Positions 16,329 through 49,355 of a stretch of DNA of 64,000 bases are shown in pieces. Made by a program: the position numbers and the translations under genes. The stretch lies in the sequence record PZ534511.1. One strand, written 5' to 3'. Numbering within the stretch: the stretch's first letter is position 1; each line of letters begins with the position of its first letter. The DNA comes from a phage. Below the pieces are notes generated by a model. That model ran no database searches. It was not told where the DNA came from and saw only the letters and a list, made by a program, of their open reading frames with translations.

Positions 16329-16562
16329 ATGAAAGTTAAATTTCTTACAGATTTAGGATACCCTTCCTTGGTTGACTGCATCGGTAAAATTGTGGAAGCA
16401 AAACGGCTATCTGCAAACGATAATGTTGTCATGGTTAAGGGAAAAGATTTATTAGCTGCAGGTGCAGAGTCTGGCAGGATCTCTCCTGACTATACGTATT
16501 ACCTGTCTTTAAGCAATCTACCAGAACGAGGCGGCAAAGGCCTTGAAGTTGTGGAGGAGTGA
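16329..16562 (+). CDS. small protein, member of MKVK...VEIVEE paralog family
   Basis: MKVKFL...G.DLLAAGA...GLEVVEE resembles ORFs at 19993-24375. Confidence 0.5.
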   Translation: MKVKFLTDLGYPSLVDCIGKIVEAKRLSANDNVVMVKGKDLLAAGAESGRISPDYTYYLSLSNLPERGGKGLEVVEE

Positions 16563-16567
16563 CAGGT

Positions 16568-17092
16568 ATGCTTCTGATTAACTGGGAAGACCTCTATGGG
16601 GACAAAGACCCTGTTGCGTTTGTTGGTCGTAGGTGGAGGTACACTGAAGAACAACTGGCTGCAAAAAATTTAACTGCAAAACGCAGAAAGATTATCCAAT
16701 GCAAGTACAAATACGCACAGTTTGCTGCAAAAGTGTCTCCACAAATCGAGAGCTTTGTACTTAAATTGTATGACGAGTATCTCAAATTCAAATTGGATTT
16801 TGTGCAGGTATACCGTGCACAGGTACGTCCAGATACCAGCATTTGTAGATGGAAGGTTGTTTGTGACGGTAAAGATTTGCCACTCAGCTTGACAATTGAG
16901 CAGCGTTGGGGGTATCATGAGTGTGGTCTGTATGAGACTTGGGATGTCATTGTAGATCCTGCTAAGTACCTGAACACAGAGGAGCTGGAATATATCAATA
17001 AGGTTATTCTAGATATGTTTTTCAACTACACCCGTGAAAACTCCGAGAAAGAACGAGATAATTTTCTTGACACCATCAGCAACCATCTGTAG
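16568..17092 (+). CDS. hypothetical protein
   Basis: ORF; ATG with GGAGGAG RBS. Confidence 0.45.
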   Translation: MLLINWEDLYGDKDPVAFVGRRWRYTEEQLAAKNLTAKRRKIIQCKYKYAQFAAKVSPQIESFVLKLYDEYLKFKLDFVQVYRAQVRPDTSICRWKVVCDGKDLPLSLTIEQRWGYHECGLYETWDVIVDPAKYLNTEELEYINKVILDMFFNYTRENSEKERDNFLDTISNHL

Positions 17093-17122
17093 TATATAAT
17101 TTAACCTACAAAGGGAGGGCTA

Positions 17123-17359
17123 ATGAGTATAAATGTTGTGCTAATAGGTTACCTGGTAATAGCCGCTATAACAGCGGTATTCTTGACAGGTGTATGCATC
17201 GTGTCCAGACGAAGGGTGAAGTTTGATGATTTTATCACCATCATCACTGCTGCACCTTTTTGGCCTGTTGTTATCTTCATCGTGATAATGTGCCTGGTTG
17301 ATTACTACAAGAATATCCGTAAGGAGAAAAAGGAGGGTAGGGATGGAGACCGCACCTAA
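17123..17359 (+). CDS. small membrane protein (2 predicted TM)
   Basis: two hydrophobic stretches. Confidence 0.45.
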   Translation: MSINVVLIGYLVIAAITAVFLTGVCIVSRRRVKFDDFITIITAAPFWPVVIFIVIMCLVDYYKNIRKEKKEGRDGDRT

Positions 17360-17578
17360 AACTGTTTATACTGTTCTTAAAGAGATTGCGTTCTACGCAG
17401 ATCTTAGCCAGGCACCTTTATGGGAAAAGAGCATGTATTTAAAATGGTGCGTTAATTTAGGGAGACCTTCCAGTGTTTCAAGCCATGTTTATTGAGATGC
17501 TATCTGGGGTATTGTTACTGGTAGCCATCTTAGGTGGTGCAGTTCTGATGTATAACTATCTTGAAAAAGGAGACAGCA

Positions 17579-17764
17579 ATGGCAAAAAATAAATCTTTAG
17601 AGCAGGCTGAAAACCTTCTCCACGAGCTAGTAAAGGAGTGGAAAGTTGAATACTCAGATTTTAATGCACGAGAGGGTGAAGATTATTGGCCTACGGAGCG
17701 CTCAGAGGGCGAATGGTATCAAGATTTTATAGAGTGGTTATATCAGACGTGCGATGAGGGGTGA
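17579..17764 (+). CDS. hypothetical protein
   Basis: ATG with GGAG RBS inside track ORF 17561-17764. Confidence 0.35.
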   Translation: MAKNKSLEQAENLLHELVKEWKVEYSDFNAREGEDYWPTERSEGEWYQDFIEWLYQTCDEG

Positions 17765-18231
17765 CGATGTTTGTTAAATATGTAAAAACGTGCCTCAACA
17801 GTCTTGGCAGAGAGCATTGGTACACTTTGCTTGAAAAAGGGGAAATTTTAACAAAATCTGGAAAGATAACTTTGATACCTCTTGATAGTAAAGGTAAAGA
17901 CCCGTCACGACTTGTTATAGATGATTACGTTACAGGTGTGACGTTCGAGGTCTCTGTGGAGAGGTTAATACGCAGAGCTGGCGGCCCTTATGACCGAAGA
18001 GAGTATGTTTTCGATTCCGTTACAGAGATGGGGGAGCATCCGTCTTTAATGTTCAGGATGGTAATCAGAGATATGAGGTCATCTATAGATAGGATCGTAA
18101 AGGACATTAAGGAACCTTTTAGAGTAAAAGTTAAGAAGTTTTTCGATTCTAAGATTAACATACTTGCCGTTGCACTAGGTGTAGTTCAACTTCTGTTAAT
18201 TTTGCACTATTTTGAACTACTATTTAAGTAG
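17761..18231 (+). CDS. hypothetical protein with C-terminal TM helix
   Basis: ORF; hydrophobic C-terminus. Confidence 0.45.
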   Translation: MTMFVKYVKTCLNSLGREHWYTLLEKGEILTKSGKITLIPLDSKGKDPSRLVIDDYVTGVTFEVSVERLIRRAGGPYDRREYVFDSVTEMGEHPSLMFRMVIRDMRSSIDRIVKDIKEPFRVKVKKFFDSKINILAVALGVVQLLLILHYFELLFK

Positions 18232-18293
18232 TAGTTGAGATATGGCACAAAGGATGTGCCATAGTGAAATAAACTAAGAAAGAGGTAGAGAGA

Positions 18294-18641
18294 ATGCCAA
18301 AGATTAAAACGTTATTACTGTGGGTAGCTGTTTTAGCTTTTATAGGGTACTGGACTTGGGAAACTGAATTAAAAGATATCGGATATACCAGTCTTGAGAG
18401 CAAGGCGTGCATTGGCATAACCGATGCGTTCAGGCAAAATGCTATGGATCACGAATGTGTTGATGCAGATATAGATGAGAAACTGTCTAAGGACAAAGAT
18501 TTTTACCATGGGCATGCTTTACTTGATAGTGGTGACACTGTAGAGTTCTGGTCGTGGTTTCGTGAAGATGGAACAATAAAAACAGCAGTAAAGATCTCTA
18601 ACAAAGAGTTAATGCTGTTGCAGCAAAAGGAGGCTCAATGA
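18294..18641 (+). CDS. hypothetical protein with N-terminal TM/signal segment
   Basis: MPKIKTLLLWVAVLAFIGYW hydrophobic N-terminus. Confidence 0.45.
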   Translation: MPKIKTLLLWVAVLAFIGYWTWETELKDIGYTSLESKACIGITDAFRQNAMDHECVDADIDEKLSKDKDFYHGHALLDSGDTVEFWSWFREDGTIKTAVKISNKELMLLQQKEAQ

Positions 18642-18925
18642 TCTGGATATCCTATGCTGATGGCACCATGCTGTATACTGCAGGTACCAGATATGAAGTT
18701 CAGGAGAACGATAAAAAATTTATCGTAAAAACATTTGACAAGGACGACAACCTTTTGCTAGAATTGACTTACAAAGTTGGAGAGGTATCCAATATCCAGT
18801 TGGATTGTGGTCATAAAGATAATCCACTCAAAAAACCTGGAGTAGGTAAGGCTTCAGAAGAACGTCTGTCTCGTATTGCAGAAAGCGTTTCTCCCCAAAA
18901 ATCTAAGAAGAGGACTAGAAAATGA
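18638..18925 (+). CDS. hypothetical protein
   Basis: ORF overlapping neighbours by 4 nt. Confidence 0.45.
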   Translation: MIWISYADGTMLYTAGTRYEVQENDKKFIVKTFDKDDNLLLELTYKVGEVSNIQLDCGHKDNPLKKPGVGKASEERLSRIAESVSPQKSKKRTRK

Positions 18926-19116
18926 AAAACTTACGTTTTAACACTTATTACTACAACACATTGAATGATTTGTATTATATTGTTCGAAGTAAAAGTCCTG
19001 AAACAGTCCTATTCTGCCGCGAACCTTTCAAAGGGGAGGAAGTAGAGTCTGAGATGAATGTTAGCCAGATCACCTCTTTGTTGCTCTCAGGCGCAATGGA
19101 AGAAGCAATATTCTAA
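18922..19116 (+). CDS. hypothetical protein
   Basis: ORF. Confidence 0.4.
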   Translation: MKNLRFNTYYYNTLNDLYYIVRSKSPETVLFCREPFKGEEVESEMNVSQITSLLLSGAMEEAIF

Positions 19117-19134
19117 ACCAGGCGGGAGGGTTTT

Positions 19135-19320
19135 ATGAAGCACTATTGCCTGTCTGGTAGAATGGGTGCAGATTGTGATTGGGTTTTCTTAAAACTTGTC
19201 AGCATTCGAGAGTTCATCCCAGAGGAAGAGCAAGAAAGCGAGCTGATGTCATGGATCAACCATTACGGTAACACTTTTCGGCATGTTAAGGTAGAAGAGT
19301 TGCCAAGCGAGGCTGATTGA
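19135..19320 (+). CDS. hypothetical protein
   Basis: ORF with GGGAGGG RBS. Confidence 0.4.
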   Translation: MKHYCLSGRMGADCDWVFLKLVSIREFIPEEEQESELMSWINHYGNTFRHVKVEELPSEAD

Positions 19321-19322
19321 CT

Positions 19323-19412
19323 ATGATTGCATCAATATTAACGTTTATGGGTGGCGTGGCATTCGGATTCATTGTTTGCCTGTTTATAGTGATTATGTCT
19401 ATGCGAGGCTGA
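19323..19412 (+). CDS. 29-aa hydrophobic micro-protein (below ORF-track cut-off)
   Basis: single TM-like stretch filling gap between genes. Confidence 0.3.
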   Translation: MIASILTFMGGVAFGFIVCLFIVIMSMRG

Positions 19413-19415
19413 ATT

Positions 19416-19712
19416 ATGAAACTTTTTGAGTGGTTTAAAAAGTTTAAATATAAAGCTGTAGCCATCGTGCCGTGGTCCATTCAGTGGGTTGATGAATGTG
19501 GTCTACCAATACCTGGTGACAAAGATACTGGGTACTGGATTATGATGGAGAACGGGTTTGGAAAGAGAAAGTATACGTGCACAAACTCTACTCGATCTGC
19601 ACTTAATAGAGTGCCTGGTTACAAACTTATGGTTGTGTGGAAAATGTCAGGCGTTCCTCCAGCCAATGCTCAATTTCTTACTGACAATCCAACCACGGTG
19701 GAGGGAGATTGA
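19416..19712 (+). CDS. hypothetical protein
   Basis: ORF. Confidence 0.45.
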   Translation: MKLFEWFKKFKYKAVAIVPWSIQWVDECGLPIPGDKDTGYWIMMENGFGKRKYTCTNSTRSALNRVPGYKLMVVWKMSGVPPANAQFLTDNPTTVEGD

Positions 19713-19714
19713 TA

Positions 19715-19996
19715 ATGAAAAAGGTTAACAGTGGTGAAGTTGAGTTTAAACTTGTCGGGAAAGGCACTTACTGGGAAGTTCGTCAAAAGGTATATTTGTT
19801 CGGTCTTATTCCCTATTGGTCTAAATTCTACTGGGGAGCTAACGAGTTGGGAAGATACGCCACCAAATCAATGGCACTTATTGGTATAGCAGAGTACATT
19901 GCAGCCAGAGATAGGGTTGGAGACACTTATTACTATACTGCGGACGATATTCGTAACAGTGTTTACGTCCCACAACCACCTGATGGAGACCGTTGA
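19715..19996 (+). CDS. hypothetical protein
   Basis: ATG with GGAG RBS. Confidence 0.45.
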   Translation: MKKVNSGEVEFKLVGKGTYWEVRQKVYLFGLIPYWSKFYWGANELGRYATKSMALIGIAEYIAARDRVGDTYYYTADDIRNSVYVPQPPDGDR

Positions 19997-20220
19997 TGAA
20001 AGTTAAAGTTTTAGATTCAAGCTTCTATATTGGTCAAGAGCCTTTGGTTGGAAAAGTGTTTACCGCTGTTCCTAATAAAGATTACCCTGACCTTTTAAAA
20101 ATAAAAGGGTCAGCTCTTATTGCCGCTGGCGCATCTCAGGAATGCTTTGACAGTCAGTGGACCTACAACTTTGCCCTAGGAGAGGATGTGGAGATAGTGG
20201 AGGACGATCATGAAGGTTAA
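19993..20220 (+). CDS. small protein, MKVK...VEIVE paralog family
   Basis: MKVKVLDSSFYIGQ...GSALIAAGA...DVEIVED. Confidence 0.5.
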   Translation: MMKVKVLDSSFYIGQEPLVGKVFTAVPNKDYPDLLKIKGSALIAAGASQECFDSQWTYNFALGEDVEIVEDDHEG

Positions 20221-20464
20221 AATTCTTGACTCTAACGTCTACTTGGGACAATCCTTCCTGAAAGGAAAGGTCGTACCTGCGGCATACTTCGAATGGTTGC
20301 CTGACAACGATCCTGTGCGTCAGAAGCATTCCACTGTATCACACTGTGTGGTATTTATTCGCGGGTCAGATCTGATCAAAGCTGGTGTCCCCAAGTATTA
20401 CTTTGAGGAAGAACATTACTATGCCTTCGGTGTAGGAACAGATGTAGAGATTGTAGAGCGGTAG
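20210..20464 (+). CDS. small protein, MKVK...VEIVE paralog family
   Basis: MKVKILDSNVYLGQ...GSDLIKAG...DVEIVER. Confidence 0.5.
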   Translation: MKVKILDSNVYLGQSFLKGKVVPAAYFEWLPDNDPVRQKHSTVSHCVVFIRGSDLIKAGVPKYYFEEEHYYAFGVGTDVEIVER

Positions 20465-20465
20465 T

Positions 20466-20864
20466 ATGAAGAACAAGCTTTTCAAAGTAACAATGAAAAT
20501 TCGCGGAGCTTGGAGCGTAAAGCAAGGACGTATTCCAGAATTTGAGAAAGACTTCTACGTAGTCTCCACCTCGGAGGAGGCTGCATGCTGGCAGGCTGGC
20601 TATGCCTATGCAAGAACATGGTACGAAGGGTACCAGACTGGTGGCTATGACGGAGAAATTATCAGCAAAGGTGCAGAAGAAATTAATGTGTTGACAAGTG
20701 AAAAAGTTTTTGTTATAGTGCATCCAGATTCCAGAGTGAAGCATTACTGGAATGCCAGAACAAAAACTTGGACACCGTTTGCAGATTCTGCTACACCACT
20801 TTTAAACCAAAAAGCTCTTGACTCTGCCCCGAGCTATGGGGTTGTTGAAGAAAAGCTAAACTGA
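20466..20864 (+). CDS. hypothetical protein (paralog of 22676-23071)
   Basis: shared HP.S...YW......WTP...T.L pattern. Confidence 0.5.
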   Translation: MKNKLFKVTMKIRGAWSVKQGRIPEFEKDFYVVSTSEEAACWQAGYAYARTWYEGYQTGGYDGEIISKGAEEINVLTSEKVFVIVHPDSRVKHYWNARTKTWTPFADSATPLLNQKALDSAPSYGVVEEKLN

Positions 20865-20881
20865 AACAGTGAGGTGCCACT

Positions 20882-21172
20882 ATGATGGATTTAGTTCTGA
20901 ATATTGATAACGCAGGAGAGGTTAAAGACGATGGTGTAACAAGCATGTACCAACCATGCCCTGCCAAGATTGACTCAAAATGGACCTATAAGTTTGACGG
21001 AGAGATCTTTGCAAATGATGAAAAGGTTGTAGATGCTGCAGCCATTTTGAACGCTCTAGGGTACGACCCTGTGAATTCTTTGATCAAGGATCCTGTTGAG
21101 TTTGCAGAGTATGTTCGAAAAATGGCAGATCTTGCTGTAGATATTTTAGATACTATCGACAACAAGCTGTAA
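20882..21172 (+). CDS. hypothetical protein
   Basis: ORF with GAGGTG RBS. Confidence 0.45.
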   Translation: MMDLVLNIDNAGEVKDDGVTSMYQPCPAKIDSKWTYKFDGEIFANDEKVVDAAAILNALGYDPVNSLIKDPVEFAEYVRKMADLAVDILDTIDNKL

Positions 21173-21178
21173 AAACTG

Positions 21179-21207
21179 TTGACACAACGCTTCAGCTATA
21201 GTATTAT
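21179..21207 (+). promoter_or_regulatory. sigma70-like promoter (TTGACA-17-TATTAT) upstream of hpf
   Basis: -35/-10 hexamers. Confidence 0.55.
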
Positions 21208-21259
21208 TGTTTTCAAAGAGAGATGGTTGTTATTCTCCCTTCCTTGAGAGGAGCACGTT

Positions 21260-21577
21260 ATGCAAATTGAGATCACTGGCAACGTAGAAATCACCGAAGG
21301 TATGGTGTCTTTCATTTCCCACAAAATGTCAAAACTGGAGCGTCTACATCCTTCTGTAAATCATGCACGTGTAAGTGTAAAAGTTGAAAATGATCACCAG
21401 GAAGTTATGGCGTTCATTTTTGACACTTCTGGAAAAGAAGTTATTGCCAAAGCTAAAGGCAGTGATGCTTACGAGGCAACTGACCGTATGGTAGATGTTG
21501 CAGCACGTCAGCTGGCTAAATGTGGTGGAAAGAAAGGTAAAGGGAAAGGAAAAGTAAAGATTGACTTTGGAGAATGA
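21260..21577 (+). CDS. hpf: ribosome hibernation promoting factor / RaiA family protein
   Basis: MQIEITGNVEITEG...KLE...VSVKVEN...GSDAYEATDRMVDVAARQLAK closely parallels E. coli HPF (MQLNITGNNVEITEA...DMYAAIDGLIDKLARQLTK), recalled from memory. Confidence 0.8.
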   Translation: MQIEITGNVEITEGMVSFISHKMSKLERLHPSVNHARVSVKVENDHQEVMAFIFDTSGKEVIAKAKGSDAYEATDRMVDVAARQLAKCGGKKGKGKGKVKIDFGE

Positions 21578-21586
21578 GGTGCTACA

Positions 21587-21688
21587 ATGGGCGTGATTAA
21601 GAAATTAGTCCCAAGTGTAGAGATTGCATGCTTTGAAATTATGTTTGCAATCGCAGTTGTAGTTAATGTGTTAGGTTACGGCTATTGA
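21587..21688 (+). CDS. 33-aa hydrophobic micro-protein (below ORF-track cut-off)
   Basis: GAGGTG RBS; single TM-like stretch. Confidence 0.3.
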   Translation: MGVIKKLVPSVEIACFEIMFAIAVVVNVLGYGY

Positions 21689-21714
21689 TATCAAATAATT
21701 GAGGAGACCTCTAA

Positions 21715-21984
21715 ATGAAAATTAAATTATTCAAAACTGAGCTGGCAGACAAAAACTGTGGACTGGTTGAAGGCATGATTGTTGAAGCACAACCAGTGGA
21801 CTACATGAAGGTGGTTCGTGATGCCTTGGGTGAAGGTTTTGATCTGATGGAGCCAGCTCTGCGAGAAGATGTCATCGAGATGGCTAAAAAGCACACACCT
21901 GAAGGTCTGGTGGTGTTTGTTGCACCGGGTAACGGAGAAGAGTTGATTGTAACTCCGGATGTGTATGAGATTGTAGAGGAATAA
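21715..21984 (+). CDS. small protein, MKVK...VEIVE paralog family
   Basis: MKIKLFK...ends VYEIVEE. Confidence 0.5.
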   Translation: MKIKLFKTELADKNCGLVEGMIVEAQPVDYMKVVRDALGEGFDLMEPALREDVIEMAKKHTPEGLVVFVAPGNGEELIVTPDVYEIVEE

Positions 21985-22075
21985 TCCTGCTTGGATTAGC
22001 ATACTTCCTCGATAAGGAAGGTTTGTAATTATTTGTGGGAAAGGAATCCCAATCTCTTACCAGAGGTGATACTAT

Positions 22076-22339
22076 ATGATTGTTTATTTTAAAACTTCAG
22101 GTGGATACCCTGATTCTCAAAGCTTGATCGGAAAAACGTGCACAGCATACTCACCTCTTGATGAGGAGGTAGGCGATATTCTACGGAATATGTATCGGAT
22201 TGATCCTCAAGAAGCTTTTGATCAAAACCTTGTATTTGTCAAGGGCTCAGACATGAAGTCTTTGGGAGCATTCCCTGAAGCAGATGATGATGCCGTTTAT
22301 TCGTTCATGACCCCTTTTGAAGCTATGGTTGTTGGGTGA
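22076..22339 (+). CDS. small protein, probable divergent family member
   Basis: similar size, ...VFVKGSDMKSLGA... core. Confidence 0.45.
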   Translation: MIVYFKTSGGYPDSQSLIGKTCTAYSPLDEEVGDILRNMYRIDPQEAFDQNLVFVKGSDMKSLGAFPEADDDAVYSFMTPFEAMVVG

Positions 22340-22346
22340 TAATATG

Positions 22347-22676
22347 AAAGTACGCTTTATTGGTGAAACAATTCCTGTGCATCTCCGGTCGCCTGAGGAT
22401 TCTGCAGATCTTGCATCTCAAAAGGCGAGAGGTTATGATAAGAAAGTAACCTCAACTGATGTAGTGCTTGAGGCTACTAGTCTACCTGACCCTGCTGCAT
22501 TCTTTAATCATTATGGGTACTATTTCAGCAATCTGATGAATATCGGTGAGCTTGTGTTTATTAGTGGTGGAGAGATTGTTAGCAAGCTTGGCGGCGATCC
22601 GGATGTCTTTCATGAAACCTGTCCTTTTGCATTTGTGGTAGGTTCAGATGTGGAAGTTATTGAGGAGGTGCGGTAA
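22347..22676 (+). CDS. small protein, MKVK...VEIVE paralog family
   Basis: MKVRFIGE...ends DVEVIEEVR. Confidence 0.5.
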   Translation, partial: KVRFIGETIPVHLRSPEDSADLASQKARGYDKKVTSTDVVLEATSLPDPAAFFNHYGYYFSNLMNIGELVFISGGEIVSKLGGDPDVFHETCPFAFVVGSDVEVIEEVR

Positions 22677-23071
22677 TGGTAAGCCTATACCGTGTTGAGT
22701 ATAGCTCAGATACTGTATACAACGTAAGAAGCAAAGATCGCAGCGACAGAGTGCAAGAAATGTATGTTCTTGCCGACAGTCCGTTATCTGCAGCGTTCAA
22801 GGCAGGGGCTCTTGCATCTCGTTGGAAATTTGAAGGCGGATCTTTCTATGAAGAAACCCTTGAAGATTCTGTTGTTATTTCTTCTGTAGAGGTTTCAGAT
22901 GACTACGAAGGGAAAAAGTTCGTAATGCGGCACCCACACAGCAACATTGCGTACTACTGGGATGTTCTGAACAACGAGTGGACCCCAGATCTTCAGAAGG
23001 CTACTGTGCTAACACCGTTTTTGGCAGATAAGTTCCCACCAGAAGGTAATTTATCCGCACTGTTTCAGTAA
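22676..23071 (+). CDS. hypothetical protein (paralog of 20466-20864)
   Basis: shared RHPHS..AYYWD....EWTP...ATVLTPF pattern. Confidence 0.5.
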   Translation: MVSLYRVEYSSDTVYNVRSKDRSDRVQEMYVLADSPLSAAFKAGALASRWKFEGGSFYEETLEDSVVISSVEVSDDYEGKKFVMRHPHSNIAYYWDVLNNEWTPDLQKATVLTPFLADKFPPEGNLSALFQ

Positions 23072-23089
23072 TTTTCTTGCACACAGGTG

Positions 23090-23118
23090 TTGACAACGCC
23101 AACCCTGTGTGAAATAAT
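23090..23118 (+). promoter_or_regulatory. sigma70-like promoter (TTGACA + AATAAT-type -10)
   Basis: consensus -35; A/T-rich -10 at about 17 nt. Confidence 0.45.
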
Positions 23119-23150
23119 ACCTTCATCTTAACAAGACAGGAGACCGATTG

Positions 23151-23408
23151 ATGAAGATTAAATTGAAAAACCTTGAAACGGCAGAGATTCAGGACGGTGT
23201 TGATTTCCGTTCTAAAGATGGTGACATCTTAGAGGTAAATATTCCAACCTACGAGCTGATTAAAGGTTTTGGCAACGTTCCGGAAGAGGATATTACAGAA
23301 ATTCTTATGATGTTGATTCTTGACGGAACTGTGTTTGTAGGTGAAGGTGAGAACGCTATTGCAATCCCAGGCCATTTTTATGAAGTAGTTGACGAAGAGG
23401 TGCTGTAA
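23151..23408 (+). CDS. small protein, MKVK...VEIVE paralog family
   Basis: MKIKLKNL...ends YEVVDEEVL. Confidence 0.5.
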   Translation: MKIKLKNLETAEIQDGVDFRSKDGDILEVNIPTYELIKGFGNVPEEDITEILMMLILDGTVFVGEGENAIAIPGHFYEVVDEEVL

Positions 23409-23759
23409 ATGAAAGTAGAAATTACCGGTTTTGATGTGAATGTGGTTCCGGAAGATATTTTAGCTAAACTTCCAGAAGGTTTTGGTAACGGCGTTGTGGT
23501 GGATGCTGTTCCTCCTACCAAAGACATTCTGCTGCAGTATGGTGTAGCAGAGGAAGATGTCGATAAAGTTCTTACAATGATGGCAATCGATCGTGTTGTC
23601 GTTGTTAAAGGTCTCGATAATTTTGAGAGTGATCCCCTGATTATTCGTGGAGATGACTACAAAATCATCGATAATGAAGGCCAAGAGTTCTATGAACCTT
23701 GTGCAGAAGATATTCTTAACTTATTACTGGAAGCAGGCACCGAAGAGGAGGACGAATAA
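23409..23759 (+). CDS. small acidic protein, family-like
   Basis: MKVEITG... acidic C-terminus. Confidence 0.5.
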   Translation: MKVEITGFDVNVVPEDILAKLPEGFGNGVVVDAVPPTKDILLQYGVAEEDVDKVLTMMAIDRVVVVKGLDNFESDPLIIRGDDYKIIDNEGQEFYEPCAEDILNLLLEAGTEEEDE

Positions 23760-24088
23760 TGAAGATTGACCCGTTACTGAAGGCTCGTGCAGAAAAAGCG
23801 TACACTATTAAGCTGACTAATCTGGTTCCTACTTGTCATCCGGATGTAGGTTGGCCCGAAGGTTTGGTGGAGGGAACTGTAACAGCTGCATACCTTCCTA
23901 ACATCAAATACCTCATGGAGATCTTAGAGATGGATGAGGAAACTGCAGAACAGTTCCAGTTGGATATGAAACAAAGTGGGACTCTGGTTATTCACGGGTG
24001 GTACAATACTAAAGATGCAGAAGACCCTCTGGTAACTTCTAATCTAGCATATGAAATCTTAGGACCTTTGAACCTGGAGAAAGACTAA
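23759..24088 (+). CDS. hypothetical small protein
   Basis: ORF translationally coupled to neighbours. Confidence 0.45.
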   Translation: MKIDPLLKARAEKAYTIKLTNLVPTCHPDVGWPEGLVEGTVTAAYLPNIKYLMEILEMDEETAEQFQLDMKQSGTLVIHGWYNTKDAEDPLVTSNLAYEILGPLNLEKD

Positions 24089-24375
24089 TGAAAGATCTGG
24101 TTAAGATTAAGATTAAAGATACCAATGGAGAACTCAGTCATTTTGGAATTAATGATGGTGACGAGCTGATCGCACACCTGCCTACCAAGGAAGTTGTAAG
24201 CAAAGCAGTTGCCGGAGAAGAAGATGCAATGCAGGCTGCAGGTGTGGATGAAAACTATGTAGCCATGTGCATGTGCCGAGATCAGGTTGTTCTGTATAAA
24301 GCGTATCGACCAAACGGAGCCACGGAGTGGCTTGTATTTCGACCTGAAGGATATGAAATCTTAGAGGCACTATGA
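24088..24375 (+). CDS. hypothetical small protein
   Basis: ORF; ends GYEILEAL. Confidence 0.45.
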   Translation: MKDLVKIKIKDTNGELSHFGINDGDELIAHLPTKEVVSKAVAGEEDAMQAAGVDENYVAMCMCRDQVVLYKAYRPNGATEWLVFRPEGYEILEAL

Positions 24376-25851: not shown

Positions 25852-26159
25852 GGTGGATTATGTCTACAAAGGCGGCTAAATACTCTTACATGCCATCAAC
25901 CTCTGCAGAGGTAGACTTTAGTTTCGATGTGTTTCCACTGTTTGAGGTGGTTCTGGCATACCCAACAATACTATCTACTCCTGAATCACTTGTGCCTGTT
26001 AAGTTGCAGAACGCTATGCATTCTATGCACTACAACAATAAATGTAGGCACAGATGGTGTCAGGACGAGGAAAAAGATTTGGATAGTTTGAGAGATTTTG
26101 ACAGTCACCTTTTGACACCTTTCAGCTACTCCAACCTTGATAAGCCCTCATGGGTATAG
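25848..26159 (+). CDS. hypothetical protein
   Basis: ORF. Confidence 0.4.
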   Translation: MRWIMSTKAAKYSYMPSTSAEVDFSFDVFPLFEVVLAYPTILSTPESLVPVKLQNAMHSMHYNNKCRHRWCQDEEKDLDSLRDFDSHLLTPFSYSNLDKPSWV

Positions 26160-26183: not shown

Positions 26184-26210
26184 AGGACGCTCTGTGGCGT
26201 CCTTTTCTTT
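26184..26210 (+). terminator. rho-independent terminator
   Basis: AGGACGC-ucugu-GGCGUCCU hairpin followed by UUUCUUU. Confidence 0.65.
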
Positions 26211-26372
26211 ATCTGGTGCACGATTGCATACCTTGGACAGATAATCTCGTTACAGAGCGTTTAAGAGCTTCCTACAAACAAATCTCTCTTTCGAGCGTAG
26301 CGAGAACGCACGTCCGTTTTGACCCAAATCACCATACGCTCGGATTTTAACCAAACCCTCGCGGCGTTTCTG

Positions 26373-26401
26373 TTGACACATTACCGATCCAGTGATAGTA
26401 T
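26373..26401 (+). promoter_or_regulatory. sigma70-like promoter (TTGACA-17-TAGTAT)
   Basis: -35/-10 hexamers. Confidence 0.5.
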
Positions 26402-26421
26402 CCACACATAGTTTGTAGAAT

Positions 26422-26523
26422 ATGGAGTACACAATGAGAACATTGTCCGAAGTTTTAGTGGTGATCCTGATGATCATTACGTCCATAGCGGCTGTTGCCG
26501 GAATACTCACGGGTGGAACATGA
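26422..26523 (+). CDS. 33-aa hydrophobic micro-protein (below ORF-track cut-off)
   Basis: single TM-like stretch; stop overlaps next ATG. Confidence 0.3.
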   Translation: MEYTMRTLSEVLVVILMIITSIAAVAGILTGGT

Positions 26524-26732
26524 TCAACACACATGCATCTGAAGAGACATCCGAAGGAGTGACCATATGTCCCTTGGATGAGCCAGTTAAAGAGGAAAAC
26601 TTAGATTCTGAGGACTCTTCATCTTCGTCCCAGACAGATCCTGAGGCTGATGACCTGACGTGGGAGGACATCGTAGATATCTGGTTCTCTATTATGCCTG
26701 AGCACGAAGAGTTCAGAGGTGGTAGACTATGA
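26520..26732 (+). CDS. hypothetical acidic protein
   Basis: ORF; Ser/Asp/Glu-rich. Confidence 0.4.
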   Translation: MINTHASEETSEGVTICPLDEPVKEENLDSEDSSSSSQTDPEADDLTWEDIVDIWFSIMPEHEEFRGGRL

Positions 26733-26771
26733 AGCACCGAGCCCACACAGGTTCCTCATGCTAAAGCATGG

Positions 26772-27982
26772 CCTGAAGAGGCAAACGTGTATAATTCTTG
26801 TGCATTGGAACGTATAAAACCCTGTTCACACTCTCATTCCCAGAGGAGATTTTATGAAGATAGAAATATTTGGTGGGGCTGACAACACTCGTGGCCTGAT
26901 TTACCTTGAATTCGATGAATCATACCTGCCAGAGGTGTTAAATATAGACTCTGTTGCTGAGGCTTTGGGAGTAAACCCTAAAGAACTCCACTCTTGTGCT
27001 GAGATCGATGGTTGGGAAGAGACCATGAATATTGATTTCAGTGAAGTAGAGGATGAACCGCTGGACTGACACACAATTAGCTGCCCGGCTAAAGTGCTGG
27101 AAGCACCTATAACACATCTTTCAACTAAATTTCCTACCACCACAATCACTTACCTCCCACACATGACTGTTTGCTTGTTTAGTGAGCAGTCATGCCTTGA
27201 CATTCTTGCCTATCCTGATAAAATTAAGTTCTTCTCTTTTCTTTTACCGAGTAATTCGGGTTTTCTGTTCTCTTCGGTTTGAAGGGGTATGGAGATACAC
27301 CTGAGTGAACAGGGTGAACAACCGAACCATTGGCTATGGCATTAGCATGGCGAAGCGGACGGGTGACGAAAGAGTGGCCGGAGGACACCAGTCACTGCCA
27401 TATGATATATGGGTGATAACCTGAAGAGTCTGAATAAGTGTTTAAGTACCAGTCAGAGGAAAAGGTGAATGGTAGCCGAAGGGGGAGGGGGGTTTCTTGT
27501 ATCTTTAATTTGTATATTATGTATACACTTGTAAACCAATCTCATCTGAATCTGTTTACCACACAAGGCGGATAGAGACAAATATTACCTATTAAACTTG
27601 AATTATTTATAGAAAATACCACAACACCACTTAAGTCTTTGATTTTACACACAAATCTTACAGATATTCAGCCTCCCTATTTAACATACCTGTAACATAT
27701 TCCATACTCTACCTGTCTGATCAATTTACTCCCACCACATCCCCACATTTTCCTTGTCTGTACTACCCCTGCCCCGCCGGGAGTCCCGTCATATCTGGCT
27801 TTCCAGCAAATATCACACCCACAAATATCATTGCCTGAAGAGGGTTTCATCCCATAACACATGCCTTACCTGAAGAGCGCTTCATACACCACGTAAATTT
27901 TTTAATTGACCTCCCCTTCCCCGCCGGAGAGGTTGGCTTTTCCCACACAGACCTGAAGAGTCAGCCAGAAATATCTGAAGAG
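26772..27982. repeat. six dispersed copies of 9-mer CCTGAAGAG (one TCTGAAGAG)
   Basis: copies at 26772, 27420, 27834, 27869, 27952, 27974 on the same strand. Confidence 0.6.
26854..27069 (+). CDS. hypothetical acidic protein
   Basis: ORF with GGAG RBS. Confidence 0.45.
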   Translation: MKIEIFGGADNTRGLIYLEFDESYLPEVLNIDSVAEALGVNPKELHSCAEIDGWEETMNIDFSEVEDEPLD

Positions 27983-28610
27983 GGTCTAGTTCTGCCCTGT
28001 CATGAGCGGTAGCGACTGGAGTGCTGCCAGGCGGACGAAATGGGAATACTTCTCATTCTTATAATAATTCTCAAATATCGAGGCAGTGAGGCAAATTAAT
28101 AGGTGAGGCCGTTCACACAGTGGCACAACATTTGCAACCTATCTTGTGGGGGTGAATGAGAATACCTATCATTGTGAGAATAGTTATCATTACGGGCAAT
28201 TTAACATAATACCCATTATGCGCACCACTGGCGATACATACAGGGATTGATAACATGAGTTACAGTTTACGCATATAACAATCATATTTCTTACTATTTG
28301 TGTGGGATATAGTTAGCAGCCAATAGATTAGATATTGACCTGCAGACTTCCAACCGTCTAGACGTCTAAACGCCCACACAACAAGGATTATACATACATC
28401 GCTGAATGTAAACAGGGCCGCAAAAATGCTACCATACCAGTTTGTAAATTTTTCATGCAGCACTTGACAAAGAGGAGAAAAACTTGTCTGACACACCGGA
28501 CACAATATGGCACAATAACGACTGTTATTATTTCATGTTTCACTGTTCACGTATAGATTGTTCCCGCATAGACTGTTTACACCTTGACAGTTTACACAGA
28601 TATGATAAGC

Positions 28611-28860
28611 CATGACATTCGTTTGCATGAAAACAATTAGCAAGTTAACAATTAACAAGTTAATAATATATGACATAATATAAAAGCAGGGCAACTATTA
28701 GCAGATCTATAGTTGCCTTGCTTGTTATGTCATGATTAACTAAATACAAGGCAACTATGATCTGATTAATAGTTTGCAGACAAACTATCACGGGGGTGAT
28801 GGTTACTGCTTTTATATTATGTCGCGACTCCGTCGCGCCATGCCATTCGTTTGCATAGTT
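28611..28860. repeat. cluster of inverted and direct repeats (candidate origin or regulatory site)
   Basis: 18-mer CATGMCATTCGTTTGCAT x2; 21-bp inverted pair at 28668/28807; AAGGCAACTAT and its complement x4. Confidence 0.55.
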
Positions 28861-29470
28861 GCCTTATTGTTACAGGTAAAACAATTACATTATTAATTAT
28901 TTCTTATCTTTCTGTTAGTCATCTAATGATTCCAGTTAGTATAGTAACGTACAGTAAACATTAGACGACTAAAGATTTCTCTGCTTATGATAACTTGCCG
29001 TGACAATTTCGGACTGTTTACGAAAAATGTTGACACCTGAGCTGATTTATGTTATGCAATTTAAACGAATAATTATTTTATGCAGGTATTGACTATTCCG
29101 TTATTCTATGGTTGGAATAAATACTTAGCAAGCTATAGAATGGTGAGCGTACGTAAATTCTGAAATCTGGCGGCTATAGTTATACTCGATTTTTCGCATA
29201 GGACACGCTTTCGATGTTGTGTAAGTGTATGACTTATAAGAATTTTTATTTGTTGACAAGATATTGAAGATATGCATCAGGTTAAAATTTATGCAATAGC
29301 GGCATTACGTGCAATTTTGGGAGAGAAAACGGGCAAAAATGGCCTTGCTACCACACAATGAAAAATTATGCAATAGTTATTTTCCATGTATATTTGTACA
29401 GTGTGTGGGATTAATAGCTAGTCAATTATTCCACTTGCCAGGTAGGGCCGTTTATGGTAGGAGAAGAGCA

Positions 29471-29498
29471 GACAAAAAGAAAGGGGCCTAAGCCCCTT
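29471..29498 (-). terminator. rho-independent terminator for the minus-strand gene block
   Basis: GGGGC-uuag-GCCCC hairpin followed by U-run on minus strand, just after stop of 29517 gene. Confidence 0.55.
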
Positions 29499-29516
29499 GA
29501 TAATTCAGTTAAAAAA

Positions 29517-29936
29517 TTATAATGATTCGTATATTTCAAAAATCCGATTTGCCAGGTCGTTACGGTAGCGGAATTTTTCCTCACGTTTGATCATAAGATC
29601 TTTATAACCGTACTCTTTAAGCACTTCATTAACTTTATGGCGGCATACTTTCATATTATCCTGCGCGTCACCAATAAATCTGTTGCTATGGTGCATGGCT
29701 TTAATTTCTTCTTCCAGGACCAGGGCAACTATGCGGACCGGATCAAGCTGATAGGCGGTAACATCCATGCGGCATTGTAGACGGCTTTTAACGTCCGCCA
29801 CCGGATATACTGCAACCTCTTCCCCGTCAACATTGACAATAATTAGTTTACCATCGATTTCGAATCCTTTCGCCGCCGGACCGTGACAAAAAGCGTTATC
29901 AAAGCTATATGCCGGATTATCAGATTTAATGTTCAT
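29517..29936 (-). CDS. hypothetical protein
   Basis: ORF with GAGG RBS. Confidence 0.5.
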   Translation of the reverse strand: MNIKSDNPAYSFDNAFCHGPAAKGFEIDGKLIIVNVDGEEVAVYPVADVKSRLQCRMDVTAYQLDPVRIVALVLEEEIKAMHHSNRFIGDAQDNMKVCRHKVNEVLKEYGYKDLMIKREEKFRYRNDLANRIFEIYESL

Positions 29937-30081
29937 GGTGTTTTTTACCTCTCAGTTAATTTTCTTACAACTTCCCTTCAAAAAAGAATATAGCAAAACT
30001 GCCGATCCCTGTCAACCAAGGATAGCATAATTTTTATGTGATCAAGGGGCTTTATTGCCCCTGACCATGTAACTTGTTGTA

Positions 30082-46271: not shown

Positions 46272-46517
46272 TTAGCCAATCACTTCAAAAGTTCCCCAAT
46301 TCCCGTCTAGCAGGCAGGTGATCGGATCCCCATCGTCGTCAAAGATTTCAAAGTTTTCAGCATCCAGGATGTGGTCCTCGAACACAATACTCTCGTCGCC
46401 ACCACCAGAAATAACAGCGTATTCCTTACCTTGAGTCAAGTTTTGACACCCTTTGCCACCAAAACCTACTTCCACACAACGTACTTTCTGTCCTGCGCGA
46501 GCAACTGCTTCAGCCAT
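46272..46517 (-). CDS. hypothetical small protein
   Basis: ORF with AGGAG RBS. Confidence 0.45.
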   Translation of the reverse strand: MAEAVARAGQKVRCVEVGFGGKGCQNLTQGKEYAVISGGGDESIVFEDHILDAENFEIFDDDGDPITCLLDGNWGTFEVIG

Positions 46518-46534
46518 CTTAAGGTCTCCTGATA

Positions 46535-46837
46535 TTAATCGTCAAGTTCAAAATAGATTTTAACAGCTTCATCAAAGATTGGAATCCCGATGTTGTTGAT
46601 AAGCTGCCAAACTACCATATCTTTACCTGGGTCTGGGAGAATGTCAACCTTTCTCCATGCGCTGTATATCCAGTTTGGACCACCTTCTGCACTAACTGGC
46701 AGATTTTCACCAGCCTCCTGCAGATACTTATACAGCAAAAGATATTCTGGATACTCTAGAACACTGTCCTCTGTAGTATATAGCAGTTCACGGTATACTT
46801 TTAAAAACCCTGCTGGGGTGATGTTTTCAGTCTTCAT
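46535..46837 (-). CDS. hypothetical protein
   Basis: internal ATG with AGGAG RBS. Confidence 0.4.
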   Translation of the reverse strand: MKTENITPAGFLKVYRELLYTTEDSVLEYPEYLLLYKYLQEAGENLPVSAEGGPNWIYSAWRKVDILPDPGKDMVVWQLINNIGIPIFDEAVKIYFELDD

Positions 46838-47219
46838 TTGCTGCTTCTCCTGCATTCATCAGATCTGCCATAGCGTCACCCACGAAGAGAACAACCACAT
46901 CGTTGACAGCGTCAGCATCATCTTTATTGACGTTGCTGAATTTAGGACACACAGCAATGATCATATAGACACCGTTACCAACCTGAACTGTCCGTGTGGT
47001 GCACATCATGGCGGTATTTGTGCCTTCTTTGAAGGCGAAGCCTTGAAGACGCTCCTCTAAAGTGTTACCGGTAGATTTCAGAAGCGCCAGCTCGTCCAAG
47101 TCATAGATGATATCTCCGGAAGTTAGTGTTGCCTTGCCATCAGACACCATAATAACTCCATCAGCACCGTCAAGCTTAGAGGCTTCAAAGATATCAATAT
47201 CCCAAATATTTTTCATCAC
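46827..47219 (-). CDS. hypothetical protein
   Basis: ORF. Confidence 0.45.
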   Translation of the reverse strand: MMKNIWDIDIFEASKLDGADGVIMVSDGKATLTSGDIIYDLDELALLKSTGNTLEERLQGFAFKEGTNTAMMCTTRTVQVGNGVYMIIAVCPKFSNVNKDDADAVNDVVVLFVGDAMADLMNAGEAANED

Positions 47220-47476
47220 GCTTCCTCGTCGTCTAAGGAGTTGAAGATTTCACCGAAGTATTCTAAGACTTCTAGCTCCCGTGTGGTGCAGAAAACACAG
47301 TCACCGTTGTCATCCTCGATAACGGCCTCTTTACCCAGCACATCTACTTCAAGTTTATCGTTCAACAGGACGGCCCCTGTGTAAACTTTGTCAGCTGTGC
47401 AGTCCCGAAAAGCGGAGTCCTTCTCCAGATAGTCTGGCTTAACCTTGGCTTTAATTCGTTGATATTGTTTGGTCAT
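47216..47476 (-). CDS. hypothetical small protein
   Basis: internal ATG with AAGGAG RBS. Confidence 0.4.
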   Translation of the reverse strand: MTKQYQRIKAKVKPDYLEKDSAFRDCTADKVYTGAVLLNDKLEVDVLGKEAVIEDDNGDCVFCTTRELEVLEYFGEIFNSLDDEEA

Positions 47477-47539
47477 TGCTATGGTCTCCTTTTTCTTAGA
47501 TGGGGCCATTATATCTGGCCCCATCTTTCTTGTCAAGTA

Positions 47540-47794
47540 TTAATGTTCAGGTTTTACAAAAACCACTTCGTTAACGGTGCACCAGACAGAATCTCCTTCA
47601 TCATCTTTAAAGGTAAGGCACTGGGCTGAGTTTTCCAGCTCATCAATCTCTTCTTGTGATAAAGGAGCCCCTTCTTCCAAAAGGGCTTTTACTAAAGGGT
47701 TCTCACAAAACTCTGCTTCATAAATAGCACCAAGCGTGCAATCTTTAAAAGCTCGGTCATTTGCAACGCATGCTGGTTTCAACATGATTTTCAT
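47540..47794 (-). CDS. hypothetical small protein
   Basis: ORF with GAGGAG RBS. Confidence 0.45.
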   Translation of the reverse strand: MKIMLKPACVANDRAFKDCTLGAIYEAEFCENPLVKALLEEGAPLSQEEIDELENSAQCLTFKDDEGDSVWCTVNEVVFVKPEH

Positions 47795-47870
47795 TTTAGC
47801 AGTCTCCTCAATTATTTAAAAATCAACTCTCTGTTTGTGTGAAGCATCTTATATCTAATCTTACTTCTTG

Positions 47871-48242
47871 TCAATGACTATTTTCAATCAGCCACACAGG
47901 GTCGAGGTAAATTTGTTGGCGTGTTGCCCAATGACAAACTTCATTGTACGTCTGAACCTCTTTGTCTGTCAATTCACGAATAGGCTCATCTATACCCTCA
48001 TTTTTGTGGTAATCCCATTCTGCGTCTATCTCCCACAGCCATGACTTGTTGTCACCACGCTTACGCACACAGAAGTCACCAGGGCGGCCTGCCAGTGCAT
48101 TTAAGAACTCGTTCTCCACTCGCTCCTGGAGAATACTGAGGAGCAAAACGTTGGAGCATGATCGTAAAATATGCTTCAGCTCACAGTCATCGATCTCAAC
48201 TTCGATACGTTGTTTGACTGTGTGGGTACCTTTTACTAACAT
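47871..48242 (-). CDS. hypothetical protein
   Basis: ATG with GAGGAGG RBS (track ORF used TTG). Confidence 0.45.
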   Translation of the reverse strand: MLVKGTHTVKQRIEVEIDDCELKHILRSCSNVLLLSILQERVENEFLNALAGRPGDFCVRKRGDNKSWLWEIDAEWDYHKNEGIDEPIRELTDKEVQTYNEVCHWATRQQIYLDPVWLIENSH

Positions 48243-48252
48243 TCTACCTCCT

Positions 48253-48447
48253 CTAAACGAACTCTGCAAGGGTTGTGTTGTTCACTGCACCACAGTAAAT
48301 GGAGTATCCCAGCCCATTAGAGTGCAGAAACCACGGAGTGCCGAAATTATCTTTCACGTAGACATCGCCGTTGCTTGTAAAGGGCCAATATTCTTCACCA
48401 AGGGTGAAATACCTACTCATACCCTCAGCCAGATACTTTACTTTCAT
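48253..48447 (-). CDS. hypothetical small protein
   Basis: ORF with AAGAGGA RBS. Confidence 0.4.
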   Translation of the reverse strand: MKVKYLAEGMSRYFTLGEEYWPFTSNGDVYVKDNFGTPWFLHSNGLGYSIYCGAVNNTTLAEFV

Positions 48448-48671
48448 AGGTCCTCTTCAACAGCTACAAACTTGGCAAGCAGGGTGGTTCCGTAGATATG
48501 ATACTCACCGTTTGCCAGATGGGAGATAAACCAGGCAATCCCTTCCTCGTCTTTAATCATCTTGTTTGCACGATCTTTATCGTAATAAACCTCGTAGGTC
48601 TTTCCTTCTTTAAAGAAGGACAGGTCTGTCATCTTTTCTTCTACAAAAGTAGCTTTAACCAAAGTTGTCAT
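48444..48671 (-). CDS. hypothetical small protein
   Basis: ORF with AAGGAG RBS. Confidence 0.4.
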   Translation of the reverse strand: MTTLVKATFVEEKMTDLSFFKEGKTYEVYYDKDRANKMIKDEEGIAWFISHLANGEYHIYGTTLLAKFVAVEEDL

Positions 48672-48952
48672 TGATCGGTCTCCTTCTTGTTAAGTCTGAA
48701 TACTGCAATAATAGCATTCCCAAGGTGCAGTGTCAAATCATTTCCAAGATACCACAACATTCCACGGTCATCTTTAATGAAAGGGTAACAATCTGGTGCC
48801 TTCCAGACATTGTACACTTTCCCAACCTGAAAGAAATCAGGCCCTGTTGGGATTTTGGTGCCAGGCCACACTTGAGATACCTGAACACACTCCACCTGCA
48901 TAATAACAGGAATAGTCATGGATGTAAATGTTTTTGTTGGTTCTACTACCAT
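48668..48952 (-). CDS. hypothetical protein
   Basis: internal ATG with AAAGAGGAG RBS; avoids overlap with polymerase exon 2. Confidence 0.4.
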   Translation of the reverse strand: MVVEPTKTFTSMTIPVIMQVECVQVSQVWPGTKIPTGPDFFQVGKVYNVWKAPDCYPFIKDDRGMLWYLGNDLTLHLGNAIIAVFRLNKKETDQ

Positions 48953-49001
48953 AAAAGTCTCCTCTTTGCTCAACAACACTTCCATGTGTTGATAGTTTAC
49001 A

Positions 49002-49355
49002 TTAGTGACAATCACCCCAATTACGACCACACAAGTATTCACCTGTGATCTGGAACGGGACTCCCATCATTTTAGAAGCTTGCCAGAAGCAATGCACCAC
49101 CATTTCACCCACAGGGCTCCAGATAAGTTCAAGCTTTCCGTCATCGTTCAGGATAGGATCGTACACCGTGTTTCCGTCTCTGTCAACCACTTCGTTTCCG
49201 TCCTCATCCTTGCGTGCCTTTTTGTACTTATGACCGTCGAACACATGAAGTTTGGCTTCCTGCTCTGCCTTAAATGCTTCCAATTCTTCAATTGTGTCGA
49301 AGGTGTACACAGTCTTATACTTAGGCGTGTCAGGGACCTGAAGTTGGTACTCATC
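49002..49355 (-). CDS. DNA polymerase (family A), C-terminal segment / exon 2
   Basis: begins DEYQLQV (completes motif C HDE) and ends GRNWGDCH-stop, matching family A C-terminus (Pol I ...NWDQAH); preceding ATG has no RBS. Confidence 0.6.
   Translation of the reverse strand, partial: DEYQLQVPDTPKYKTVYTFDTIEELEAFKAEQEAKLHVFDGHKYKKARKDEDGNEVVDRDGNTVYDPILNDDGKLELIWSPVGEMVVHCFWQASKMMGVPFQITGEYLCGRNWGDCH

Follow-up and report, generated by a model that had tools for sequence, protein, structure and literature searches.

A ten-gene array in an rV5-like phage

We analysed an array of ten small genes at positions 16329-24375 of a 64,000-nucleotide stretch of phage DNA (sequence record PZ534511.1; this whole stretch is referred to as the window, and all coordinates are its own). 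An earlier note on this DNA, made from the sequence alone, had proposed that these open reading frames (ORFs) form one tandemly duplicated family of small proteins. The window belongs to an rV5-like Escherichia phage of the genus Vequintavirus, whose members are myoviruses of ~137 kb, and the 8.5 kb around the array is 96–97% identical to many Vequintavirus phages, with 115 records covering at least 80% of it. The left part of the window, from position 1 to ~26,000, is all transcribed on the + strand, as are the ten genes and the features described with them below. The array itself proved to be real: all ten named ORFs are conserved genes in related phages and are joined into two groups by profile searches. 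They are annotated as "hypothetical protein" coding sequences in CarlMeissner/Bas48, rV5, FV3, ECP32, S127 BCL3, MiataMamis, and MaxBurger/Bas54, their rV5 counterparts being ORF127, ORF140-141, ORF146-148, and ORF150-153. Shine-Dalgarno-like ribosome-binding sites of the GGAG/GAGG type precede all ten, and two starts first placed at 19993 and 22347 are corrected here to the proper ATG codons at 19996 and 22344. The ten proteins have 74–116 amino acids (aa) and are acidic, with isoelectric points (pI) of 4.0–6.3 and net charges of -1 to -21.

Five of the genes make up what we call group A. One of these stands 3.4 kb upstream of the main array (16329-16562; 77 aa, pI 5.4; orthologs rV5 ORF127 and bas54_0166), and the other four occur in two A-A-C blocks, where C denotes a partner gene. 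The first block opens with a 74-aa paralog that represents the minimal domain (19996-20220; orthologs rV5 ORF140 and bas54_0159) and continues with an 84-aa paralog in which strands 2 and 3 of the predicted fold described below are separated by a short insertion (20210-20464; ortholog bas54_0158) and a C gene of 132 codons (20466-20864; ortholog bas54_0157). The second consists of an 87-aa paralog with a strand 2–3 insertion (22076-22339; ortholog bas54_0152), a 110-aa paralog with the longest insertions (22344-22676; ortholog bas54_0151), and a C gene encoding 131 aa (22676-23071; ortholog bas54_0150). Spacing within the blocks is tight, with an 11-nucleotide (nt) overlap and a 1-nt gap in the first and a 4-nt gap and a TAATG stop-start overlap in the second.

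The other five genes, group B, include an 89-aa paralog ending in YEIVEE (21715-21984; ortholog bas54_0153), which lies between the two A-A-C blocks, and a run of four back-to-back genes behind the second block. The members of this run encode proteins of 85 aa (23151-23408; ortholog bas54_0149), 116 aa with an acidic C-terminal tail and the net charge of -21 (23409-23759; ortholog bas54_0148), 109 aa with an N-terminal extension, the most divergent member (23759-24088; ortholog bas54_0147), and 95 aa (24088-24375; ortholog bas54_0146). In the rV5 reference the last of these is split into overlapping genes gp148 and gp149, with a truncated 70-aa product, whereas the other six phages compared have it intact; a frameshift or a sequencing error would account for the split.

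Strong sigma70-type promoters lie within the array at 21179, 21561, and 23090, two of the three being annotated in the rV5 record. The first (21179-21207; 11/12 consensus matches; P144 in the rV5 annotation) precedes a gene for an HPF/RaiA homolog, a ribosome hibernation factor (21260-21577; PF02482, E=4e-13), located between the two A-A-C blocks. The second (21561-21588) and the HPF gene lie ahead of the 21715 gene, and the third (23090-23118; 11/12 matches with an extended -10; P150 in rV5) precedes the four-gene B run. Some GenBank records (e.g., MK883718, OQ626344, MN8505xx/MN8506xx) label the ortholog of 21715-21984 "sigma 54 modulation factor"; since this protein has no PF02482 match, we judge the label to be apparently a carry-over error from the neighbouring HPF gene.

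Two groups of paralogs

The sequence ends that the earlier note had described as common to these proteins are shared far above chance. Among the 136 coding-strand genes of the window, an MK[VI][KRE] N-terminus is found in ten, seven of which are family members, a C-terminal [VYLF][EK][VI][VIL][EDG] tail is found in nine, eight of them members, and the six genes that have both are all members. The central segment that had been listed as a third shared feature, G.(D/E)L..AG, is restricted to the five A members. The idea of a duplicated family of small proteins is likewise upheld, and its members fall into two sequence groups with a weak sequence link between them.

Within group A, BLASTP connected the products of 19996 and 20210 (E=2.6e-13), 16329 and 19996 (6e-5), and 20210 and 22344 (5e-4). 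The group A profile picks up the 16329 product, and the 22344 product, a seed member, scores E=1.8e-34 against it. A four-member A profile found the 22076 product (E=1.9e-6) and nothing else among 454 six-frame ORFs, where the best of 2724 reversed or shuffled decoys reached E=0.029; this gene, which had been put forward as a likely divergent member, is thus a solid member of group A. Group B was assembled stepwise, from 23151 to 23409 (phmmer, E=1.3e-4), from 23409 to 24088 (~1e-3; 9e-4 by phmmer with the 24088 product), from a three-member profile to 21715 (2.3e-4), and from a four-member profile to 23759 (1.2e-3). Only this last profile recruits the 23759 product, whose ortholog in a divergent relative (L014, see below) matches the B profile, and no other ORF among the 454 was recruited by the group B profiles. 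Identity between paralogs is 21–46%, and synonymous sites between them are saturated.

Several minus-strand ORFs at 46272-48671 had been suggested as possible relatives of the array. They are unrelated to A or B, with no hits by hidden Markov model (HMM) searches, and the ORF at 48253 has only its MKVKYL start in common with the family. This region does hold two paralog pairs of its own, 47216-47536 with 47540-47794 (E=5e-6) and 48444-48671 with 48668-49042 (E=9e-5). Since these two further minus-strand pairs are unrelated to A and B, small-gene duplication is common in this genome.

A shared predicted fold

AlphaFold models of one member per group (predicted local distance difference test scores of 92 and 90) gave the same SH3-like five-strand barrel for A and B, with an identical strand order and the same insertion site between strands 2 and 3. 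The barrel is superposable on SH3, KOW, or PsaE structures; its structural neighbours in the PDB are generic SH3-like folds, and those among the viral models of BFVD are all uncharacterised small phage proteins.

The same fold could have been reached twice, with A and B unrelated and their shared ends being generic features of small beta-proteins. Phages have many small proteins with SH3-like folds, B lacks the ELI.AGA segment by which A is defined, and HMM searches never cross between the two groups. Direct profile-profile comparison with hhalign gave P=0.034 for the five sequences of each group, 0.003–0.006 with database homologs, and 0.0018 (local) and 0.0003 (global) with the widest alignments; the associated hhalign probabilities were low (2–16% overall, 15–16% with the widest alignments), which again would suit convergence. 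However, the A–B score of 22.3 exceeded all 100 column shuffles (maximum 15.6) and the reversed B profile (12.2), and the alignment was collinear every time across the whole barrel, pairing the MKVK strand, the G-x-V-V-x-A strand, the insertion, the V-V-I-x-G strand, and the Y/F...YEIVEE end. When all 90 window proteins of 55–150 aa were used as a test set, B members ranked first (21715) and third against the A profile among the 85 proteins outside A, and A members ranked second and fourth against the B profile. Convergence must also contend with the identical strand order and insertion site and with the interleaving of A and B genes in one array that has been kept in a divergent lineage. We regard a single superfamily as likely, though not proven, and independent origins as unlikely while well short of negligible.

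The A-A-C blocks

The two C genes, which have no Pfam domain, are themselves paralogs (E=5.7e-9), and both belong to phrog_7379, so that the arrangement of 19996, 20210, and 20466 is repeated by 22076, 22344, and 22676. The 22676 product is found at amino-acid identities of at least 95% in 119 phage records. In L014 the C gene is retained in the second block only. Homologs of C beyond the genus were not detected by tblastn, and distant A relatives have other neighbours (NinX, AAA_24), which indicates that the A–C linkage is genus-specific.

Ancient duplication and purifying selection

The array is present with intact reading frames in ~120 Vequintavirus genomes at 90–97% nucleotide identity. 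The earlier note had proposed diversifying selection. Ratios of nonsynonymous to synonymous substitution (dN/dS; Nei-Gojobori, orthologs in seven phages) do not bear this out: they are 0.03–0.21 for the ten members (e.g., 0.11 for 16329 and 0.03 for 21715), like those of their neighbours (0.04–0.07 for the two C genes, and 0.01–0.36 for sixteen others, including 0.05 for HPF). The most variable A ortholog is the 20210 product, which has a proportion of nonsynonymous differences (pN) of 0.063 and 78% identity to its Bas54 ortholog. In L014, a metagenomic contig of 128 kb, all ten members have one-to-one orthologs in the same order at 29–74% amino-acid identity. Median identity to L014 is ~52% for the family versus ~63% for neighbours, which is not significantly lower (Mann-Whitney p=0.08). 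Because all ten genes have one-to-one orthologs there, the duplications and most of the divergence must be ancient and not ongoing, and retention of these orthologs together with purifying selection implies that the genes are functional and individually maintained. As judged from these sequence comparisons, the pattern is the signature of sub- or neo-functionalised paralogs and not of ongoing diversifying selection. An Aionostat evolution study of Bas54 reported no changes in the array region.

Some metagenomic sequences carry chimeric alleles, two with a 19996-type N-terminal half joined to a 20210-type C-terminal half (P0017, P0023) and one with a different N-terminal half joined to a 19996-type C-terminal half (P0028), which is evidence of some exchange, by recombination or deletion, between neighbouring paralogs.

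A wider family outside the genus

The view that these proteins belong to no recognised named family held up, as there was no sequence match in Pfam, NCBIfam, or the PDB. Isolated noise apart, neither the ten window proteins nor 26 members of the wider family matched Pfam at E≤1, and this includes the SH3 and KOW families, so that the proteins do not qualify as canonical SH3 or KOW domains. In a PDB sequence-profile search the best match of the A profile was ribosomal protein S10e (E=0.67), and the B profile had no hit at E≤10. Against SH3 domains, PsaE, Spt5/NusG KOW, and a PhnA-like C-terminal domain the likeness is one of fold, with identities of just 4–25%, and the array proteins differ from SH3 and KOW domains in showing no sign of proline-peptide-binding or nucleic-acid-binding residues.

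The window proteins do match eight PHROG clusters (5009, 13920, 13661, 11868, 12359, 12155, 12457, and 12794; E=1e-27 to 1e-76), all of "unknown function". Three A paralogs are already together in phrog_5009 (16329, E=6e-36; 19996, 1e-36; 20210, 6e-27), to which the 22076 product, of phrog_13920, matches weakly (1e-4) and the 22344 product not at all; the ten genes are nevertheless spread over the eight clusters, with no relationship, fold, or function recorded. The rV5 genome paper contains nothing on paralogs or duplications, and the daunorubicin/BASEL paper nothing on the array genes. Neither PHROGs nor the rV5 genome paper describes the paralogy, the A-A-C arrangement, or the wider family.

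Word-indexed searches with groups A and B returned only rV5-like contigs (~135 kb). When 1.84 billion representative proteins were searched exhaustively with the group A profile, 42 matched at E≤1e-3, most of them 63–87 aa long and aligned end to end. Their consensus is MKVKLLNDGGY.GM..VGKVV.A...V.G.ELI.AGA...F...Y.F..G.E.E(V/I)(V/I)EE, with conserved Y11, G38, L41, and G45; the five A members of the window match the wider-family profile at E=1e-14 to 1e-28, and the five B members do not (best E=0.95). In prophages of Morganella morganii and a related host, an A relative is present once, in the early-left operon, flanked by recombination genes (RecT/YqaJ or Erf/SSB) on one side and by NinX, MT-A70 methylase, and integrase on the other. 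In Proteus phages of ~42 kb an A relative lies in the replication module between a primase-polymerase gene and AAA_24/DUF669 genes, and a second copy lies in a leftward-transcribed cluster. The array had been called lineage-specific; this is correct for the tenfold expansion but not for group A, which extends to these Proteus phages and lambdoid prophages. In three metagenomic proteins (P0099, P0103, P0124) the ~70-aa domain occurs two or three times in tandem within a single chain.

The position of the prophage A relatives is exactly that of the accessory genes of lambdoid and P22-like PL operons (ea/nin type, near NinX), and they share with those genes a small size, a non-structural nature, and presumably dispensability. 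The settings differ in that the temperate phages have a single copy whereas this virulent 137-kb myovirus has ten, and the family has no match among characterised ea or nin proteins. The family is new and uncurated, but its members are phage genes of a known kind, and it does not amount to a new kind of system.

Transposon insertions in the Bas54 orthologs

Gene essentiality in Bas54, the phage also named MaxBurger, has been mapped by transposon insertion sequencing (HIDEN-SEQ preprint, doi 10.1101/2025.11.20.689424; supplementary file 9). Bas54 proteins are 78–100% identical to those of the window, and identity is ~99% over the 22076-23071 block (99% for the 22076 product). On E. coli K-12, seven of the ten members, including bas54_0166 and bas54_0148, both C genes, and HPF were classed as "Non-essential", and bas54_0151, bas54_0152, and bas54_0153 as "Intermediate" (10.1101/2025.11.20.689424). 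The comparison with clinical strains rests on one strain, the uropathogenic isolate CFE311, for which 27 genes differed significantly from K-12 (10.1101/2025.11.20.689424). Among these, insertions on CFE311 fell to zero in all three genes of the second block, bas54_0152 (log2 fold change -7.16), bas54_0151 (-6.17), and bas54_0150 (-6.77), each with an adjusted p of 0, and the paralogous C gene bas54_0157 had a log2 fold change of -2.14 (adjusted p 0) (10.1101/2025.11.20.689424). The value for bas54_0153 was -2.78 and not significant, and the remaining family members, bas54_0148 among them, were unchanged (-0.3 to +1.0); HPF insertions had no phenotype on either host (10.1101/2025.11.20.689424). 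In the same supplementary file, sheet "Data S6", titled as K-12 vs CFE303, is in fact the CFE311 run, as its console line reads B54_2_311 and its numbers are identical to those of S7; the deposit lacks the actual table for CFE303.

The two genes that the authors of that study followed up, bas54_0063 and bas54_0140, were depleted to an extent comparable to bas54_0150-0152, and both act against a predicted defence system, DS-28 (10.1101/2025.11.20.689424). The ortholog of bas54_0140 lies at 25860-26159 (+) of the window (99% identical), 1.5 kb downstream of the array in the same accessory block. Like the genes of 22076-23071, bas54_0140 is small, non-essential in K-12, and conditionally essential on CFE311; it differs in being unrelated to A, B, and C by homology (no HMM hit; phrog_12072) and in that its target was found experimentally.

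Possible function of the array

A host-takeover or anti-defence role, as the earlier note had supposed, is the best-supported reading of the array, though unproven, on the basis of the early-region context, the non-essentiality in K-12, and the loss of insertions on CFE311. The early context comes from the rV5 genome paper, where the array genes form part of the ORF82-163 transcription unit together with genes for replication and nucleotide metabolism, and the distant relatives in classic accessory positions (the lambdoid early-left operon and the Proteus phage replication module) give further support. More specifically, we propose, with a probability of about 0.5, that the array encodes early host-interaction or counter-defence binders and that block 22076-23071 serves a host-specific requirement, most plausibly counter-defence, since its neighbour bas54_0140 has that role on the same strain.

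In the SH3 topology the first and last strands are adjacent. This strand layout would explain the pattern of conserved ends and divergent middles: the terminal motifs (MKVK... and ...(V/Y)E(I/V)(V/I)EE), as the first and last strands of the barrel, would determine the fold and hold it together, leaving the middle free to diverge, and the variable loops and the strand 2–3 insertion would carry specificity. Ten acidic single-domain barrels would be made from host-type (sigma70) promoters in the early, accessory arm of the genome, and each paralog most likely binds a different host protein, either a defence component or a host factor, non-catalytically and stoichiometrically. We consider this mode of action the most economical because the proteins are small, acidic, free of catalytic signatures, associated with sigma70-type promoters, encoded in a block of small uncharacterised genes most of which can be disrupted in the laboratory strain, and individually conserved. 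Expansion of the paralogs might then widen the range of hosts that permit phage growth, and the two A paralogs and the 131-aa C protein of 22076-23071 may act as one module that is dispensable in K-12 and required in CFE311.

A number of points weigh against this proposal. No member has been matched to a binding partner, a target, or a defence system, eight of the ten paralogs had no significant phenotype on CFE311, and the structures are predictions. The transposon data come from a preprint whose authors do not discuss bas54_0150-0152, and we found no time-resolved transcriptome of an rV5-like infection in the literature. The CFE311 requirement could reflect a difference in host physiology and not immunity, and as the three genes are co-directional, the zero counts in bas54_0152 and bas54_0151 could be polar effects on bas54_0150.

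Taken further, polarity would mean that the CFE311 requirement comes from the C protein alone, with the A paralogs as passengers or chaperone-like helpers whose disruption silences C. Translational coupling of the three genes, as implied by the 4-nt gap and the TAATG overlap, and the far greater conservation of C are consistent with this. The first block bears on it in both directions: its C gene, bas54_0157, has a CFE311 phenotype and the A genes upstream of it, bas54_0159 and bas54_0158, have none, as expected if C alone matters, but the failure of these upstream insertions to copy the downstream phenotype also argues against simple polarity as a general effect. According to the preprint authors, insertions upstream of essential genes are usually tolerated (10.1101/2025.11.20.689424). 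In addition, purifying selection acts on the A genes too, and block 1 of L014 has kept its A genes although its C gene is gone. We think it rather improbable that C alone accounts for the requirement, and favour the joint module.

The HPF/RaiA homolog in mid-array and the weak S10e match would fit a role in translation, in which barrels resembling KOW or ribosomal-protein SH3-like domains reprogram host ribosomes together with HPF, but all members are acidic, which is unusual for RNA or ribosome binders, they lack a Pfam KOW match, and their relatives in other phages are not beside HPF genes. HPF insertions, moreover, are without phenotype on K-12 or CFE311, unlike those in the 22076-23071 block, and we consider such ribosome modulation very unlikely. 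That the ORFs are non-functional or mis-called neutral remnants of tandem duplication could be read from the lack of any "Essential" call in K-12, where most are "Non-essential", and of any known domain, but is effectively refuted by the conservation data (the low dN/dS and frames intact both in ~120 genomes and in a lineage at 29–74% identity), as well as being at odds with the confident fold predictions and the conditional phenotype on CFE311.

Compared with known systems, the array resembles anti-CRISPR and anti-defence clusters, which are runs of small, acidic, early-expressed proteins dispensable in permissive hosts, provided that array expression is indeed early. As a rule, such clusters are pieced together from unrelated genes and differ among close relatives, whereas the array consists of paralogs that are fixed across the genus and under purifying selection; an anti-defence role is a candidate here. 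It is possible, if doubtful, that the family as a whole is a previously unrecognised and widespread set of binders for counter-defence or host adaptation, with a minimal SH3-like barrel as their scaffold. Many temperate and virulent enterobacterial phages would then have one copy and rV5-like phages ten specialised ones, and the A-A-C block at 22076-23071 would be a module of three proteins that neutralises an immunity determinant of CFE311.

The rV5-like phages are widely used for E. coli biocontrol and therapy, and most of their early genes are uncharacterised. The analysis brings eight unannotated PHROG clusters together as a single family defined by structure, one that reaches beyond the genus, and it links two of its members and their partner gene to an infection requirement that is specific to one strain and was present, undiscussed, in a public data set. 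If the proposal is correct, a new anti-defence module and the host system that it counters could emerge; if the array is irrelevant to host range, it remains a clear-cut case of a minimal fold that was expanded tenfold long ago and has been maintained by purifying selection.

Other observations on the region

Between the orthologs of 17579-17764 and 19715-19996, Bas54 naturally lacks ~2 kb with six or seven small genes (window ~17767-19712), which indicates that this stretch is dispensable. Eighteen GenBank "Campylobacter phage" records (MG0656xx, host Campylobacter jejuni) are ~95% identical to this E. coli phage region, probably because of mislabelled hosts or contaminated preparations. Downstream of the array, window ~26200-29500 is a strand-switch region, possibly a replication origin or some other essential cis element, where the sign of the GC skew flips and GC content drops as low as 0.378 (28001-30000).

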